From Nitrospinota bacterium (GTDB lineage Bacteria > UBA8248): a DNA stretch of 47,067 nucleotides. The DNA is taken from the NCBI GenBank assembly GCA_046581755.1, contig JAYGFR010000338.1:1-47067 (forward strand), given 5' to 3'. The notes under the pieces are model-generated. The model was not told the DNA's origin. It made no database searches and saw only the letters and a list, made by a program, of their open reading frames with translations. Both the position numbers and the translations under genes were made by a program. Below are positions 18,073-24,837 of this stretch, piece by piece (within the stretch, counting starts at the first letter, position 1; each line of letters starts with the position of its first letter).

Positions 18073-19782
18073 ATGCAGGGCTACCGCAAGGGCCTGACCC
18101 AGTACGGGGACCCGGAATTCAGCGCCTTCATCCGGGGGGCTTACGCCCGGGGTTTCGGGCTGACCCAAAAGGATCTGGATCGCCCCATCGTCGGGATCGC
18201 GCAGACCTGGAGCGAACTCAACCCCTGCCACCGCAACCTCCGGGAGATCGCCGAGGCCGTCAAGCGCGGCGTCTGGCAGGAGGGGGGGCTGCCCCTCGAA
18301 TTCCCCACCATCTCGCTCGGCGAGATCTATCTTTCCCCCACCGCCATGCTCTTCCGGAACCTTCTGTCGATGGACACCGAAGAGATGATTTCCGGTCAGC
18401 CCCTCGACGGCGTTGTCCTCCTCGGGGGGTGCGACAAGACCCTTCCCGCCCAGCTCATGGGCGCGGCCAGCGCCGGCGTCCCCGCCCTGGCCGTCACGGC
18501 GGGCCCCATGATCGGGGGCCGCTTCGAGGGGAAAACGCTGGGCGCCTGTTCGGATTGCCGCGGTTTGTGGAACGAGTTTCGCGGGGGCGCGCTAACCCAG
18601 GAAACCCTCGAGGAGGTCCAGGGCGAACTCTTCCCCTCGGCCGGGCACTGCATGGTGATGGGAACGGCGAGCACGATGGCCTCGCTCGCCGAGGCGCTGG
18701 GTATGATGCTTCCGGGCCTCGCCGCCGTGCCCGCCGTCCACTCCCGCCGCCTCCGCCTCGCCGAGGAGAGCGGGCGCCGCATCGTCGCGATGATCGGCGA
18801 GGGCCTCACCCCCGCTAAAATCATGACGCGCGAAGCCTTCGAGAACGCGATCCGCGTCCTCATGGCTGTGGGCGGCTCGACGAACGCCACGGTCCACCTC
18901 TCCGCCATCGCGGGCCGCCTAGGGGTCGGACTTCCGCTCTCCCTCTTCGATGCGCTCTCGCGCACAACGCCGCTGATCACGGGCGTGCGCCCCTCGGGAG
19001 ATGAATTTCTCATGGAAGATCTCGCGGCCGCGGGCGGGATTCCCACCGTGATGAAAGAACTCGAACCCCTGCTGAACGGGGGCGCGATGACCGTCACAGG
19101 GAAAAGTGTCGCCGAAAATCTCGCAAGCGTGAAACACGCCCAGCCCTGGCAGGAGGTGATTCGCCCGCGCGAGAACCCCTTCGCCCACCAGGGCGGAATC
19201 GTCGTTCTCAATGGAAGCCTCGCCTCCGAGGGCGCCGTCCTCAAAATATCGGCCGCATCGCCCGACAAACTCACCCACACCGGACGAGCCGTCGTCTTCC
19301 GCTCCCCGGAGGACATGATCCGGCGGATCGACGATCCCGACCTCGGCGCGGCGGCGGACAGCGTATTCGTCCTCCAGAACGCGGGCCCCATCGGCGGTCC
19401 GGGCTTCCCGGAGGCCGGGTTCCTCCCCATCCCCAAAAAACTGCTTGAGGCGGGCGTCCGGGATATCGTCCGCGTATCGGACGCGCGCATGAGCGGGACG
19501 GCGGGCGGAACCACCGTTTTGCACGTATCCCCCGAGGCGGCCATCGGCGGCCCGCTCGCCCTCGTGCGCGATGGCGATTCGATCCGCCTCGACGTGCCCG
19601 CCCGCGCCATCGATCTGCTGGTGGCGGATGAAGAGCTGGCCCGCCGCCGGGCCGAGTGGCGGCCGCCCGACCCGCCCTGGAAGCGCGGCTACCGGCGCCT
19701 GTTTCTCGATCACGTCCTTCAGGCGCCCGAGGGATGCGACTTCGACTTTTTGCAGCGGGACCTCATGAGCAAACGTGCCTGA
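18073..19782 (+). CDS. IlvD/Edd family dehydratase (sugar-acid dehydratase-like)
   Basis: SELNPCH, GGCDKT, GHCMVMGTASTM, GGSTNA, SDARMSGT, HVSPEA. Confidence 0.93.
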   Translation: MQGYRKGLTQYGDPEFSAFIRGAYARGFGLTQKDLDRPIVGIAQTWSELNPCHRNLREIAEAVKRGVWQEGGLPLEFPTISLGEIYLSPTAMLFRNLLSMDTEEMISGQPLDGVVLLGGCDKTLPAQLMGAASAGVPALAVTAGPMIGGRFEGKTLGACSDCRGLWNEFRGGALTQETLEEVQGELFPSAGHCMVMGTASTMASLAEALGMMLPGLAAVPAVHSRRLRLAEESGRRIVAMIGEGLTPAKIMTREAFENAIRVLMAVGGSTNATVHLSAIAGRLGVGLPLSLFDALSRTTPLITGVRPSGDEFLMEDLAAAGGIPTVMKELEPLLNGGAMTVTGKSVAENLASVKHAQPWQEVIRPRENPFAHQGGIVVLNGSLASEGAVLKISAASPDKLTHTGRAVVFRSPEDMIRRIDDPDLGAAADSVFVLQNAGPIGGPGFPEAGFLPIPKKLLEAGVRDIVRVSDARMSGTAGGTTVLHVSPEAAIGGPLALVRDGDSIRLDVPARAIDLLVADEELARRRAEWRPPDPPWKRGYRRLFLDHVLQAPEGCDFDFLQRDLMSKRA

Positions 19783-19810
19783 TCGTTCTTTTCGTTATGG
19801 AGATTTTTTT

Positions 19811-20857
19811 ATGCCGATCCCCCGTGCAGTCATTTCCTATCACCCCGCGTTCGGATCCACCCGGGGCCGCCCGATCTCACCCGAGCACCAGAGCCGAATC
19901 GACGCGGCGATCTCGCCCGGGCGCGTAGAATTCATCATGGAGCCGGACCCCGAAAAACGGATGAAAGCGCTGGAGGAGGCCGAATTCTACCTGACCAAAA
20001 ACGCCCCCCTGCCGGCGGGGCTGTTCGATAAAGCCAAGCGCCTGCGCCTGATTCAGGTGGCCACCGTGTTCGGGGAAAAAGTGGATGCCGAGGCCGCCGC
20101 CCGGGCCGGCGTCGCCGTCTCGTTTTGCGGCCGCCCCATCGTGGATTCGGTCGCCGATCACTCCCTCGCTCTCCTTCTCAACCTGGTGCGCACCATGCCC
20201 GAATCCGCCCGGTCGCTCAGGGAGGGATCGAATAAACCCCTCTCGCCTACCCGGCCCGACGGCAGCGCCTACAACTGGACCCAGATCGAGGGCGTCCGCC
20301 CGCTCCGGGGGATGCGCCTCGGCCTGCTCGGCATGAGCGAAATCTCCCGCGCCGTTTCGATCCGGGCGAAAGCGTTCGGGATGGAGGTCCGCTACTGGAA
20401 CCGCTCCCCTCTCCCGGAGTGGATCGACCGGAAGACGGGAGCGAGCCCGGTCACCCAGGACGAGCTTTTCCGCACCTCGGACGTCATCTTTCCCGGGTTG
20501 ATGCTGAACGAGGATACGCGCCACATCGTGGGCGAGGAGGCCCTTCGCGCCATGCCCGCGGGCTCCTACATCATCAACATCAGCCGCGGCCCCCTCGTCG
20601 ATCTGAGTGCCCTCCTCCGCGCCCTGGAGGATGGCCACATCGCGGGCGCCGGGCTCGATGTTTTCGATCCCGAGCCGTTTCCCACCGACCATCCGCTCCT
20701 CGATCATCCCGGCGTCTTTCTGACCCCCCACCTCGCGGGCGGGGACAACGAGAACCTGGTCCGTGAACTCGAATCCTGGATGGCGAACGTCCACCGCGTC
20801 ATCGACGGCGAGGAGCCGATCGATATCGTGAACGGCGTCGCCTGGCGGGCGGACTGA
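19811..20857 (+). CDS. D-2-hydroxyacid dehydrogenase family protein
   Basis: VADH, AKAFGM, INISRGPLVD, AGLDVFDPEP, TPHLAG; Rossmann glycine motif degenerate (GMSEIS). Confidence 0.9.
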   Translation: MPIPRAVISYHPAFGSTRGRPISPEHQSRIDAAISPGRVEFIMEPDPEKRMKALEEAEFYLTKNAPLPAGLFDKAKRLRLIQVATVFGEKVDAEAAARAGVAVSFCGRPIVDSVADHSLALLLNLVRTMPESARSLREGSNKPLSPTRPDGSAYNWTQIEGVRPLRGMRLGLLGMSEISRAVSIRAKAFGMEVRYWNRSPLPEWIDRKTGASPVTQDELFRTSDVIFPGLMLNEDTRHIVGEEALRAMPAGSYIINISRGPLVDLSALLRALEDGHIAGAGLDVFDPEPFPTDHPLLDHPGVFLTPHLAGGDNENLVRELESWMANVHRVIDGEEPIDIVNGVAWRAD

Positions 20858-20860
20858 GCC

Positions 20861-21532
20861 ATGTGCGGGCGCTTCACCCTCATCGCGCCCAAGTCCATGC
20901 TCGAGGAGCTTTTCTCGCTCACGATCATGGGCGAGCTGCCCCCCCGCTTCAACATCGCCCCGAGCCAGCCGGTGGCCGCCGTCCGCGCCGCCACCGGCGG
21001 GGCGCGCGAGTTCACCCTCCTCCGGTGGGGGTTGATCCCCTCGTGGGCGAAAGATCCCGCCATCGGCGCCCGGATGATCAACGCCCGCTCCGAGACGGCG
21101 GCGGAAAAAACCTCCTTCCGGGCCGCCATGAAACGGCGGCGGTGCCTCATCCCGGCCAGCGGGTTCTACGAGTGGGCGAATACCGGCGCGGCGAAACAGC
21201 CCTTCTTGATCCGCATGAAGGACCGGCGCCCCTTCGCCCTGGCCGGTATATGGGAAGGGTGGTGCGGCGAGGACGGCTCCGAGCTTGAAACCTGCGCCAT
21301 CCTCACCACCTCGCCCAACGAGAGGGTGGGCGAAATTCATCCGCGCATGCCCGTCATCATCGCGCCCGGGGACTACGGCGCCTGGTTGGACCCGGCCAAC
21401 GAGAAACTCCGGACGCTCGATCGCCTGCTTTGCCCCTATCCGGCCGGGGAGATGGAGGCCCATCCCGTCAGCCGCCATGTGAACGACCCGGGCAACGACG
21501 ATCCCGCCTGCATCGAGCCGGCCGGGGACTAG
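20861..21532 (+). CDS. SOS response-associated peptidase (SRAP, YedK/HMCES family)
   Basis: MCGRF N-terminus, RFNIAP, RWGLIP, INARSET, RRCLIPASGFYEW, IHPRMP. Confidence 0.96.
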   Translation: MCGRFTLIAPKSMLEELFSLTIMGELPPRFNIAPSQPVAAVRAATGGAREFTLLRWGLIPSWAKDPAIGARMINARSETAAEKTSFRAAMKRRRCLIPASGFYEWANTGAAKQPFLIRMKDRRPFALAGIWEGWCGEDGSELETCAILTTSPNERVGEIHPRMPVIIAPGDYGAWLDPANEKLRTLDRLLCPYPAGEMEAHPVSRHVNDPGNDDPACIEPAGD

Positions 21533-23751
21533 GGCGGAAACCGCTTTTTCAGGTCCCCGCTTCCGAGTCCCACCGGAAAAAGAAGCGAGGCCGCGGCCTT
21601 GAAAAGCTCCTCCGCGTACCACTCGGCGTCGTAGCCCCGGCTGCCGTCCCAGAGGGCGAGCGCCTTCGCCCGGTCGCCGGGAAACTTCGCCCGCGCGTCC
21701 GTGAAGATGAGTTCGATCTTCTCCCCGGCGCGGAGCTTGACCCCGAGCGAGAGCATCTCTCCGGCCGCCAGGGCCGCCGCGCCCGCGGCCTTGTATTCAT
21801 GCGGCTCGCGCGAGAGGCGCCGCGTGACGGCCAGCTGGCGCACGTCCACCCGCCCCTCGCGCAGGCCGATGAGCTCGCCCTCGAGCATCTCTAACAGCCG
21901 GGGCGCGAGCGCCCGGTAGGCCGCCGCGTCCGCCGCCCCGAAGAGGGCGCCGAGCATCTCCTCTTGAACGCGCCGGATGAGGGGCGCCGTGTCGGAGCGG
22001 CGCAGCTCGATGCCCCGGATCTTGGTCTCCCCGTCCCCGAAGACGCCGAAGAAGCGGTTGGGCACGCCCACGCGCGAATTCCCCCGCGAGGGCACGAAGG
22101 CGAGCCAGCGGTAGACACCCTCGAGTTCGGCGGCGATGCCCGTCGCCCGCGAGATATCCCTCGAGAGCGCCCGGTAGTCGGCCTCGCTCGCGCCCTCCTT
22201 CGCCACCCAGATGCAATCCGTCAGGGCGTGGAGCATCGCGTAGCCCCGCGCCTCGGCGACCTCTTTCGCCTGGAGGAGCTTCTCGCGGCCCAGCGCCGTC
22301 GTCGCCTCGTGCGCCTCGATCCGCCCGAAGCGCGCGTTCTTGTAGCCGAGGTAGCCGAAGCAGGTGACGAGGAGCCACTTGATCCCCCTCTGGCGGCGAT
22401 CGAGCGTCTCGCGCAGCGCCGGGTCCGCCGCCCGGCGCATCCGGCGCTTGTAGTCCAGCCGCTTCTCGAGGAGGGGCGCGATCGTCCGGGGGACGAAGCC
22501 GCGCCGCCGCCGGCAGGTGTGATAGCCCGCCTCGGGGACGGTCCCCGCGCCTGCAACCGGGGCGCAGCAGGCGCAGTTCATCGTCTCGGGCGAAAGGTTG
22601 TACTCGGACATGAGCGTGGGGTACATGGACGAGAAATCGATCTCGCCCACGTTCTCGTAGAGGCCCGGCCTCGGCTGGTAGGTCAGCCCGCCCTTGTCGA
22701 TGGTGAGCAGCTCCTCGGCCGTCTTGGGCTCCTCGACCGTCCCCTTGCGCCAGGGCACCAGGCAGCCGTCGCCGATGACGACCTCGAGCTGCATGGCCGA
22801 GATGATCGAGCCCGTGCTCAGCCGCGCCGCCCGCTGGACCGTCTTTTTGCTCAGGCGGGCGAGCTCGAAAAGACCCTCCAGGCCCGACTCGTGCACGACG
22901 AACGAGCTTCGCCGGTCCAGGTGCCACCTGCCGCGAAAAAAATAAGAGGGCGCGCTGTAGACCACCTTGCCGTAGGTGTAGTAGCTCCGCGCCCGCCCGC
23001 GCCGCGCGAGCGCCCCGCCCCCGCGGTGAAAGGGGATTCGCCCGAAATCCGGAAGCCGCGAGAGCGCCGCCAGGAGATAGTCGTCCCCCCACTCGGTGAG
23101 GATGACGTGCGGGTCGTGGCGCTCGATGAGGCGGGTGAGCTCGCGCGCCTCAAAACCCGGCTCGATGACGTACTCGCGCCCCTCGATGCGCACGCTGAGT
23201 CCGCCCCTCGCTCCCGAGCCGCTTCCCGCGGCCAGCTGTTTGGGATGCGCGGCCGCGTCTTCGAGGCCCAGTTCCATGATCGTCAGGGGCGGCAGCGCGT
23301 AGGCGGGCGACCAGGGATCGTCGCGCATCTCCCAGGCGAGGAGGCGTCCGTCCGCGCCGGCCTCGGCCTCGATCCGCGCAAGGGGAAAGAGCCCGGTCTC
23401 GTAGAAAAAGAGCGATTCCACCTCGATGTCGCAGGTGAAAAAATCCCGCTCCGGAAAACGCCGCTGAAGCGAGGCGACCACGCCCGCATAGAGCGGCGCC
23501 TCGCCCACCTTGACCTCGGCGACCGAAACCTCATCGCCCGAATCCAGATGGCGCCGGCGGCTCTCCCGGATCTCGGTGGGCACGCCGATCCGGGCCAGGT
23601 AGCGGAGCAGGCCCTCGGGCGCGGCGTCGAGGTAGAACGAGGGCGTGAAGGGGACATGAAATTTGCGGCTCTCTCCCGCCTCGCCGACGAGCCAGAGGGC
23701 CATGCCGCCCGGCTCGGGATAGACGTCGAAAACCCAGCCGCCACTGTGCAT
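21529..23751 (-). CDS. Family B DNA polymerase, PolB2/Dpo2-like
   Basis: Motif A DFSSMYP; motif B KWLLVTCFGYLGY; motif C altered to HALTDC; KIRGIELRRSD; exonuclease motifs degenerate. Confidence 0.9.
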   Translation of the reverse strand: MHSGGWVFDVYPEPGGMALWLVGEAGESRKFHVPFTPSFYLDAAPEGLLRYLARIGVPTEIRESRRRHLDSGDEVSVAEVKVGEAPLYAGVVASLQRRFPERDFFTCDIEVESLFFYETGLFPLARIEAEAGADGRLLAWEMRDDPWSPAYALPPLTIMELGLEDAAAHPKQLAAGSGSGARGGLSVRIEGREYVIEPGFEARELTRLIERHDPHVILTEWGDDYLLAALSRLPDFGRIPFHRGGGALARRGRARSYYTYGKVVYSAPSYFFRGRWHLDRRSSFVVHESGLEGLFELARLSKKTVQRAARLSTGSIISAMQLEVVIGDGCLVPWRKGTVEEPKTAEELLTIDKGGLTYQPRPGLYENVGEIDFSSMYPTLMSEYNLSPETMNCACCAPVAGAGTVPEAGYHTCRRRRGFVPRTIAPLLEKRLDYKRRMRRAADPALRETLDRRQRGIKWLLVTCFGYLGYKNARFGRIEAHEATTALGREKLLQAKEVAEARGYAMLHALTDCIWVAKEGASEADYRALSRDISRATGIAAELEGVYRWLAFVPSRGNSRVGVPNRFFGVFGDGETKIRGIELRRSDTAPLIRRVQEEMLGALFGAADAAAYRALAPRLLEMLEGELIGLREGRVDVRQLAVTRRLSREPHEYKAAGAAALAAGEMLSLGVKLRAGEKIELIFTDARAKFPGDRAKALALWDGSRGYDAEWYAEELFKAAASLLFPVGLGSGDLKKRFPP

Positions 23752-23758
23752 CGGAACC

Positions 23759-24049
23759 TCAAAAATCGAGGCGCTGCTGCGCGCCGTCCGAGGGGGCCTC
23801 GCCCTTGGGCAGGCGCTCCTCCACCTCGCGGAGGCGCTTGAGCATCTCGATGAGCATGCCGACCACGATGGGCTCCATCGGGTTGGGGCGGCTCGCGTAG
23901 GCGGCGGGCGCGGCGTGGAAGCGGGCCATCTCGAACAACTCGTCGAGAAGCTGCTGGTCCTCGCGGCGGAGGGCCCGGCGGAATTTGCCCCAGTCCTCCT
24001 GCTGCAGGTGGCGCACCAACTGGTTGAAGGAGGTGATCGTCCTGCCCAC
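23759..24049 (-). CDS. Small helical protein of PolB2 operons (arCOG07300-like)
   Basis: MGRTITSF...WGKFRRALRREDQQLLDELFEMARFH...PNPMEPIVVGMLIE; ends QQRLDF, a beta-clamp-binding-like motif. Confidence 0.82.
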   Translation of the reverse strand: MGRTITSFNQLVRHLQQEDWGKFRRALRREDQQLLDELFEMARFHAAPAAYASRPNPMEPIVVGMLIEMLKRLREVEERLPKGEAPSDGAQQRLDF

Positions 24050-24052
24050 GGC

Positions 24053-24775
24053 TCACCCCACCTTCCAGAGGGCGCCGAGCGCGCCGCTTCCAGCGGGGGC
24101 GGGGGCAGGCTTGGGCTTAGCGATGCGCAGCCGCCAGCGCCCGTCCTCCCCCTGGCGGCAGTCCACCGCCCGCCCGGCGGCCCCGGTGAGGGAGCGGCGC
24201 AGGGCGCGCTTGCTCTCCATCGGATGATCGGGGCACACGGCGAGGATCAGGAATCCCTCCCCGGCCAGGCGGCGCAGCGCATCCAGCGTGGCCCGCCAGG
24301 TCCGGCCCACCTCGCGCGCCGGCACCGCCTCGTCGTAGTAGCTCTCGAGAAGCCCCGGCAGGACGATGACCCGCGCCCGCGCCCTTCGGGCAAACCCGCC
24401 CAGGCGGCGGACGAGCGCCAGCATCTGGTGGCAGGTGAAAGCGCGCGAGATCTGAATCCGCCCCAAAAGTTCGCCCGGCGGGCGGCCGGCATAGGCCGCG
24501 ATCTCGGTAAAATCGTAGGGGTTGAACGAGTTCCCCCCATCGGCGATGAAAATACCCTCCCCCGCCAGCAGGGCGGGGGCCACGAGCCAGGGGTAGAGGC
24601 GCAAGATCCCCCTCGGGCCCGCGAGGGCGCTCAACTGGCCCGGCATCTTGCCTCCGGGCCATTCCAGTGCAAGGAGATCGCTCCCAGCCCCGCCCGCCCC
24701 GGGAGCATGGCCTATGGCCCGGATATCGCTTCTAGAAGATTGATAAGAAAAGGAATATGGCGCCGCGTGGTTCAT
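24053..24775 (-). CDS. Inactivated RecA/RadA-like protein (ImuA analogue)
   Basis: DGGNSFNPY and ISRAFTCHQM RadA-core motifs; Walker A degenerate (GPRGILR). Confidence 0.82.
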   Translation of the reverse strand: MNHAAPYSFSYQSSRSDIRAIGHAPGAGGAGSDLLALEWPGGKMPGQLSALAGPRGILRLYPWLVAPALLAGEGIFIADGGNSFNPYDFTEIAAYAGRPPGELLGRIQISRAFTCHQMLALVRRLGGFARRARARVIVLPGLLESYYDEAVPAREVGRTWRATLDALRRLAGEGFLILAVCPDHPMESKRALRRSLTGAAGRAVDCRQGEDGRWRLRIAKPKPAPAPAGSGALGALWKVG

Positions 24776-24808
24776 GAGAGAGTCCTCGGGTCGTGCTCAG
24801 GGAGGGGA

Positions 24809-24837
24809 AGAATAGCGAATATAAAACGAAAATGCAA
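24809..24837 (-). promoter_or_regulatory. sigma70 promoter with LexA-like repeat in the spacer
   Basis: Minus strand TTGCAT-N17-TATTCT; plus strand 24817-24831 GAAT-ataaaac-GAAA resembles the GAAC-N7-GAAC SOS box. Confidence 0.6.

Follow-up and report, generated by a model that had tools for sequence, protein, structure and literature searches.

The window analysed here, a 47,067-nt stretch of DNA that constitutes contig C323 of a 4.2-Mb Nitrospinota genome (G000; completeness 96.5%), carries three tightly spaced genes that quite likely form a chromosomal, SOS-inducible extender mutasome operon. The genes encode PolB2, a family-B DNA polymerase, the small protein PPB2 (arCOG07300-like), and an inactivated RadA-like protein, iRadA (Table 1). 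Judged by its sequence, the triad is the group 1a iRadA-PPB2-PolB2 operon already catalogued in bacteria (PMC11791011, Timinskas, Timinskas & Venclovas 2025), and the operon itself adds nothing to that catalogue; its predicted operator, its exchange with umuDC among sister genomes and the incidental position of a neighbouring SRAP gene are modest additions. Bacterial PolB2 was described only computationally in the papers found, and literature searches returned no experimentally characterised bacterial system, in agreement with a first-pass annotation of the window made from its letters alone. To that record the window adds circumstantial evidence, together with a candidate LexA box for a phylum of marine bacteria that has been little studied. 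Counts at the phylum level refer to 51 genomes, and counts at the family level to 41.

Identity and conservation of the operon

The four open reading frames, their spacing, the polymerase motifs HALTDC and KWLLVTCFGY, and the CTAG shared by the PolB2 and SRAP stop codons were all found where the first-pass annotation had placed them. PolB2 and PPB2 were separated by 7 bases and PPB2 and iRadA by 3 bases, in the gene order that is constant among the bacterial operons of PMC11791011. A metagenome contig (L096) was 99.7% identical to the window across 23369-24746, and two related loci (L088 and L089; 80-85% DNA identity) reproduced the gene order, the SRAP overlap and the flanks, so that an assembly artefact was ruled out for the arrangement. 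The closest named relative by PolB was an uncultured Nitrospinae metagenome-assembled genome (71%). The sequencing runs in which the window occurs were of marine origin, and 15 runs contained at least half of its sampled words; contigs from RNA runs shared small parts of the window and count as no evidence of expression. A recent mobile insertion was rejected: G+C content at third codon positions in the operon (0.83-0.95) matched that of the flanks (0.79-0.90), a comparison from which the dehydratase row was left out, the flanks were syntenic housekeeping genes, and genomes of the same genus carried a deletion scar. The best plasmid and phage matches were 29-37% identical, with no search aimed at repeats having been made. 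Four Leptospira phage records (e.g. L136, KF114879.1) encoded PolB2 at 32-35% identity.

The polymerase scored 361 and 325 bits on two type-B NCBIfam models (both below the cut-offs) and 68 bits on Pol II. In a quick IQ-TREE search of 19 rows it fell within a 16-row clade (Shimodaira-Hasegawa-like approximate likelihood ratio test, 99) that included haloarchaeal, Thermoplasmatota and Leptospira-phage rows, with Salmonella Pol II and two archaeal DTD PolBs outside; long branches were flagged in this search, and Dpo2 and PolB1 were absent from its rows. Motif A read DFSSMYP, motif B began at residue 458 and motif C at residue 508, and a DK motif (IDKGG, residue 351) preceded motif A. Aligned with Pol II and archaeal PolB, the exonuclease motifs were lost (ExoI DIE changed to LGL, ExoII altered, ExoIII region deleted). 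An identity as Pol II or as a replicative PolB was ruled out by model scores, tree and motif alignment. Bacterial Pol II is likewise an SOS-linked family-B extender, but it acts as a single subunit with intact DTD and exonuclease, was about 24% identical to the window PolB2 over a third of its length, and stood in a separate clade. The polymerase is probably archaeal-derived, without proofreading, and able to copy past DNA damage.

No Pfam match was obtained for the 240-aa iRadA; a 7-row iRadA profile matched RadA in the PDB (E 9e-9), a structure model (predicted local distance difference test 64.9) had RadA/Rad51 as its top Foldseek matches (E 4e-8), and the GKT was missing from the iRadA alignment (A1). 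The PPB2 search returned 59 candidates, 36 of which were homologues, all PF26485; the family comprised 1965 clusters (50% identity) at E ≤ 0.001, and MGRT was invariant in all 13 aligned rows. PPB2 was present in exactly the 8 phylum genomes that have PolB2, one of them in the family. Model scores, the tree, and the PPB2 and iRadA family matches bore out the initial assignment of the triad to the PolB2/PPB2 (arCOG07300)/inactive RadA operon, and both upstream genes fitted the families of that operon.

Some PolB2 loci departed from this layout. In G026 (C8, C11; L013-L016, L057) both listed copies of PolB2, which were identical, were broken in two by a frameshift around residue 400-425; lexA was duplicated likewise in this genome, so the copies are probably a duplicated assembly segment. 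At L001:4983-8315 (= L052:7771-11103, G009) the PolB2 frame continued into sequence that by eye resembled a zinc-type alcohol/formaldehyde dehydrogenase (1110 aa in all), through read-through, chance fusion or assembly error. In a Coatesbacteria operon (L003:3072-7358) PPB2 and PolB2 lay about 1.5 kb apart, and a match to iRadA was missing.

The novelty implied by the first-pass annotation did not hold. The operon order, the MGRT arm, a modelled heteropentamer (PolB2-iRadA-PPB2x3), and an enrichment of lexA and SRAP nearby were published in PMC11791011, whose group 1a operon has the same three genes and order, MGRT arm, LTD motif C, DK motif, dead exonuclease and SRAP neighbour as the window. 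Supplement 1 of that paper has six Nitrospinota rows; row 2007 (HBK78396.1, Nitrospinota bacterium, 740 aa) is listed as PPB2-PolB2-SRAP and filed as lacking iRadA, whereas the window has iRadA. The 400 residues shown of HBK78396.1 look identical by eye to the window PolB2, with HALTDCVWV against HALTDCIWV at motif C. Bacterial PolB2 copies with lexA were already noted in 2014, in passages of PMC4104785 (Makarova, Krupovic & Koonin). The passages of PMC11791011 at hand report neither an operator nor a comparison with the distribution of UmuDC. Dpo2 of Sulfolobus islandicus, as described in parts of PMC8764526 and PMC7390963, is likewise an exonuclease-less family-B polymerase with an altered motif C, in the same type of three-gene operon; it is archaeal, Orc1-2-regulated and experimentally tested, whereas the window PolB2 is bacterial, apparently LexA-regulated, and known from sequence alone.

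Predicted LexA operator and alternation with UmuDC

A TTCG-N7-TTCG direct repeat filled the spacer of the inferred operon promoter. The matrix by which it was scored was trained on upstream DNA of relatives' lexA and recA, with no PolB2 locus in training. The site ranked 4 of 136 own-genome matches above 13 bits; the rlmD-lexA-dinB promoter ranked 1 and recA 20, both ranks being aided by same-genus training rows. The matrix matched 6 of 7 PolB2-operon promoters, none of 100 shuffles reached the score, and L089 matched too. It also matched both umuDC promoters with upstream DNA (22.8 and 21.2 bits, one with the identical 15 bases), 3 of the 5 umuDC loci lying at contig ends with no upstream DNA to score, and the operator preceded a 412-aa Y-family gene at all 7 loci examined. 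Matches upstream of recA (24/29) and lexA (26/30) come from the training regions of the matrix and are therefore circular; only held-out loci served as tests. Upstream DNA was missing for one recA row (L062), and the recA sites of genus g4 were common to divergent umuDC. Because a matrix trained on lexA and recA ranked the site fourth in the genome, and because the site precedes umuDC in relatives, TTCG-N7-TTCG is probably the LexA box of the Nitrospinota phylum. The LexA of this lineage presumably resembles the Acidobacteria type. Literature searches, including the available part of PMC8565304, gave no account of a TTCG-N7-TTCG LexA operator; it may nonetheless be a variant described before, an Acidobacterium LexA-box paper being known by title only.

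It is improbable that another regulator binds the repeat, or that the repeat is a plain promoter element and the operon escapes LexA control. Such a reading draws on the AT-rich position of the site, overlapping the -35/-10 spacer, on two other S24-domain proteins in the genome, and on weak genome-wide specificity, and several results weigh against LexA control: TTCG-N7-TTCG was not enriched genome-wide (312 sites, vs 270-603 for other spacings), many high-scoring matches preceded genes with no SOS link, the PolB2 operon of L056 had no good operator site, and a sigma-70 consensus scan upstream of iRadA called 0 sites, the -35 being weak. Against a different regulator, several families of the phylum have the repeat upstream of lexA, recA and umuDC, of a further Y-family gene and of the PolB2 operon, and the 11-base period of the repeat equals that of the alphaproteobacterial box GTTC-N7-GTTC given in the accessible part of PMC3323433.

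The window's own genome had one Y-family gene (DinB), one dnaE and one PolB, and no UmuC, a check that the first-pass annotation had proposed. UmuC was found in 9 phylum genomes (class confirmed at two loci) and the 412-aa Y-family gene in 16 (7 examined directly, 9 assigned by score band and frame length). UmuC or the 412-aa polymerase occurred in 0/8 genomes with PolB2 and in 25/43 others (Fisher p 0.004; kin not independent, genomes incomplete), and both kinds of system occurred in different genomes of one genus, in g1 (G000 vs G001, G002 and G004) and in g15 (G031 vs G032). The operator held in common with umuDC and the alternation with umuDC among sister genomes support a real mutasome role. 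Weighing against it, UmuC alone did not differ significantly (0/8 vs 9/43; p 0.32), 15 of the 16 genomes with the 412-aa polymerase belonged to one genus, and 18 of the 43 genomes without PolB2, G003 included, had none of these systems. The operon is also dispensable, as read from the genomes compared, being deleted in G001 and G003 and frameshifted in G026.

No second full dnaE or dnaE2 was found in the 51 phylum genomes, and for this reason the analogue in this lineage is Pol V rather than ImuABC; the initial proposal of a counterpart of ImuA-ImuB-DnaE2 was not upheld. ImuA-ImuB-DnaE2 is also a three-gene SOS cassette with an inactive RecA-fold protein, but it has a C-family catalytic subunit and an inactive Y-family scaffold. 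In sister genomes Pol V (UmuD'2C-RecA) lies under the same predicted operator; within a genus it takes turns with the PolB2 operon, and its architecture is analogous according to PMC11791011. It differs as a Y-family inserter activated by UmuD cleavage and host RecA, with a polymerase and small subunit non-homologous to those of the PolB2 system.

The predicted operator and the motifs favour the damage-tolerance role, under SOS control, that the first-pass annotation had suggested. LexA would bind the repeat in the promoter spacer and keep the operon off, as the computed site and regulon pattern suggest, and RecA-stimulated LexA cleavage after DNA damage would turn it on. The three genes would be co-translated, and one PolB2 and one iRadA would assemble with a trimer of PPB2, whose MGRT arm would insert close to the DK motif, as in published models. 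By analogy with S. islandicus Dpo2, PolB2 without proofreading may extend mismatched or lesion-terminated primers, probably after insertion opposite the lesion by DinB, the only Y-family enzyme of the host, encoded in the lexA operon under the same box. The operon would fill the role that UmuDC has in sister genomes.

Table 1. Features of the operon, its promoter and its SRAP neighbour, in window coordinates.
Feature	Position	Strand	Basis
SRAP/YedK-family protein, 223 aa, N-terminal Cys (MCGRF)	20861..21532	+	Pfam PF02586, E 1.8e-75
CTAG in which the SRAP and PolB2 stop codons overlap	21529..21532	.	Sequence; overlap also in L088
PolB2 family-B polymerase, 740 aa	21529..23751	-	Motifs, NCBIfam models, tree, near-identical published row
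Decayed duplicate of PolB2 N-terminus (SIFEVP in PolB2 frame), directly before the real MHSGGWVFDVYP	23752..23769	-	Three-frame comparison with L089, L052, L057
PPB2 C-terminal QQRLDF, putative beta-clamp-motif-like	23762..23779	-	Sequence; may be a mere by-product of an old overlap
PPB2 (arCOG07300-like), 96 aa, MGRT N-terminal arm	23759..24049	-	PF26485 homologues; distribution matches PolB2
iRadA, 240 aa, RadA/Rad51 ATPase fold without Walker A GKT and N-terminal helical domain	24053..24775	-	Profile, Foldseek, alignment
Inferred promoter: -35 TTGCAT (24832-24837), 17-base spacer, -10 TATTCT (24809-24814)	24809..24837	-	Sequence; alignment with relatives that read TTGACT/TTGAAT
Predicted LexA operator, a TTCG-N7-TTCG direct repeat that fills the promoter spacer	24816..24830	-	20.0 bits, matrix trained without PolB2 loci

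In most family genomes an RNA methyltransferase-like gene, lexA and dinB followed one another in this order and were co-transcribed, the operator lying about 1.45 kb upstream of lexA (G000 C208:45393-48700; L023-L051). In the window's own assembly lexA had a one-base frameshift in an A run (G000 C208; L018:1499), but the base was present and the frame intact in all 3 independent runs that covered the gene, out of four runs, so the frameshift belongs to this assembly or strain only. The idea of constitutive expression caused by a defective lexA was discarded on the same evidence. The recA promoter stretch, with its predicted operator, was duplicated on a second short contig (G000 C188:55901, C122:2008). 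In genus g4 (L064, L065, L084) recA and umuDC were divergent with an operator-bearing region in common, and UmuC was the sole Y-family match in these small genomes. The 412-aa polymerase (L147-L150, L152-L154) had no adjacent umuD, fell below all NCBIfam cut-offs, carried the same predicted operator, and was common in genus g8. A further operator match preceded an open reading frame judged by eye to be radical-SAM-like. A repeated element of about 50 bases or longer that contained TTCG-N7-TTCG occurred on about ten G000 contigs (C69:8464, C184:20832, C289:8192, C312:355, C317:3982), often near contig ends, and is probably an insertion-sequence end.

The SRAP neighbour and the history of the locus

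SRAP was present in 38/41 family genomes, against 1/41 for PolB2; among 26 distinct genomes (29 SRAP loci, three genomes appearing twice) it followed a 2-hydroxyacid dehydrogenase in 24 and adjoined PolB2 in none. No SRAP was found by tblastn at the 7 other PolB2 loci of the phylum, and no operator match lay within 300 bases upstream of SRAP. As a resident gene without the box, SRAP is, on this genomic pattern, not a member of the cassette but a bystander from an opposite-strand cluster beside which the operon settled. The cluster (dehydratase, 2-hydroxyacid dehydrogenase and SRAP last; window 17677-21532; L097-L125) was conserved across the family, an unusual setting for an abasic-site protein.

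A four-gene abasic-site module, in which SRAP would shield abasic sites and hand them to PolB2 and the tail-to-tail link would be under selection, appears decidedly unlikely. The stop overlap was kept in L088, both proteins act at damaged templates, and SRAP is generally enriched beside polB2 (134 SRAP vs 1823 PolB2 entries in the accessible part of PMC11791011); set against this are the distribution just given, the missing operator, and the retention of SRAP in G001 and G003 after deletion of the operon. The reading of SRAP as a cassette member in the first-pass annotation was not supported. Counts based on guilt by neighbourhood call for care, since one SRAP-polB2 neighbourhood in the published set proved incidental.

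The SRAP stop of G001 and G003 was followed by 21 bases that matched the last PolB2 codons (16/21 and 17/21; LKKWF vs LKKRF) and then, almost directly, by the next housekeeping gene. This 21-base scar indicates that an ancestor common to part of the genus received the operon at this site, and that both genomes lost it afterwards by deletion; G001 has umuDC, and G003 neither system. In G009 SRAP adjoined the same housekeeping gene, with the PolB2 operon elsewhere. A C-terminal QxxLF tail occurred in 20/30 SRAP rows and was missing in the window, L088, G001 and G003, where the arrival of the operon possibly removed it, although some unrelated rows lack it too.

Active site of PolB2 and the C-terminal tail of PPB2

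That the polymerase is catalytically dead or nearly so, the complex being structural or regulatory at stalled forks, is very improbable: the first Asp of motif C (LTD in place of DTD, residues 510-512) and the Asn of motif B were replaced, and this was the 2014 view in passages of PMC4104785, but the aligned PolB2 rows retain the Asp of motif A, the second Asp of motif C and the Lys of motif B, and S. islandicus Dpo2, likewise without the first Asp (PMC11791011), is an active exonuclease-less extender according to parts of PMC8764526.

The tail of PPB2 resembles the six-residue form of the clamp motif. In L052 and L057 the PPB2 tail overlapped the PolB2 start, L-D-F/L-stop being W-I-F-D read in another frame; PPB2 and PolB2 of the window and of L089 were parted by a short duplication that left a decayed copy, with Q, L and F kept in both. 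By the three-frame comparison the SIFEVP duplicate is a relic of the PPB2/PolB2 gene overlap seen in these relatives. Tail variants in relatives were QRRLGF, QQELDL, QQALDL and QQVLDF. The clamp-like tail occurred in 5/14 close PPB2 homologues and 2/150 family representatives, and a clamp motif was ruled out as a feature of the PPB2 family by the latter count. The published form is QLxLF (PMC11791011), and the host DnaE carries QGSLF. No clamp motif was evident by eye at the C-terminus of iRadA or PolB2 in the window, and a published Nitrospinota row had empty motif cells. In the passages of PMC11791011 such motifs occur in only a fraction of iRadA and PolB2 members, PPB2 not being among the proteins searched there.

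A joint reading would have the clamp motif moved to PPB2 by overprinting on the PolB2 start and kept after the duplication, giving the trimer three clamp hooks, with the mutasome as a drop-in replacement of Pol V swapped within one genus under the TTCG-N7-TTCG LexA box. Taken whole, it is rather unlikely: only the few PPB2 rows counted above carry the motif, and L-D-F/L-stop results from the PolB2 W-I-F-D codons. Taken without the clamp, the LexA box and the exchange with umuDC form a reasonably likely reading of the same loci.

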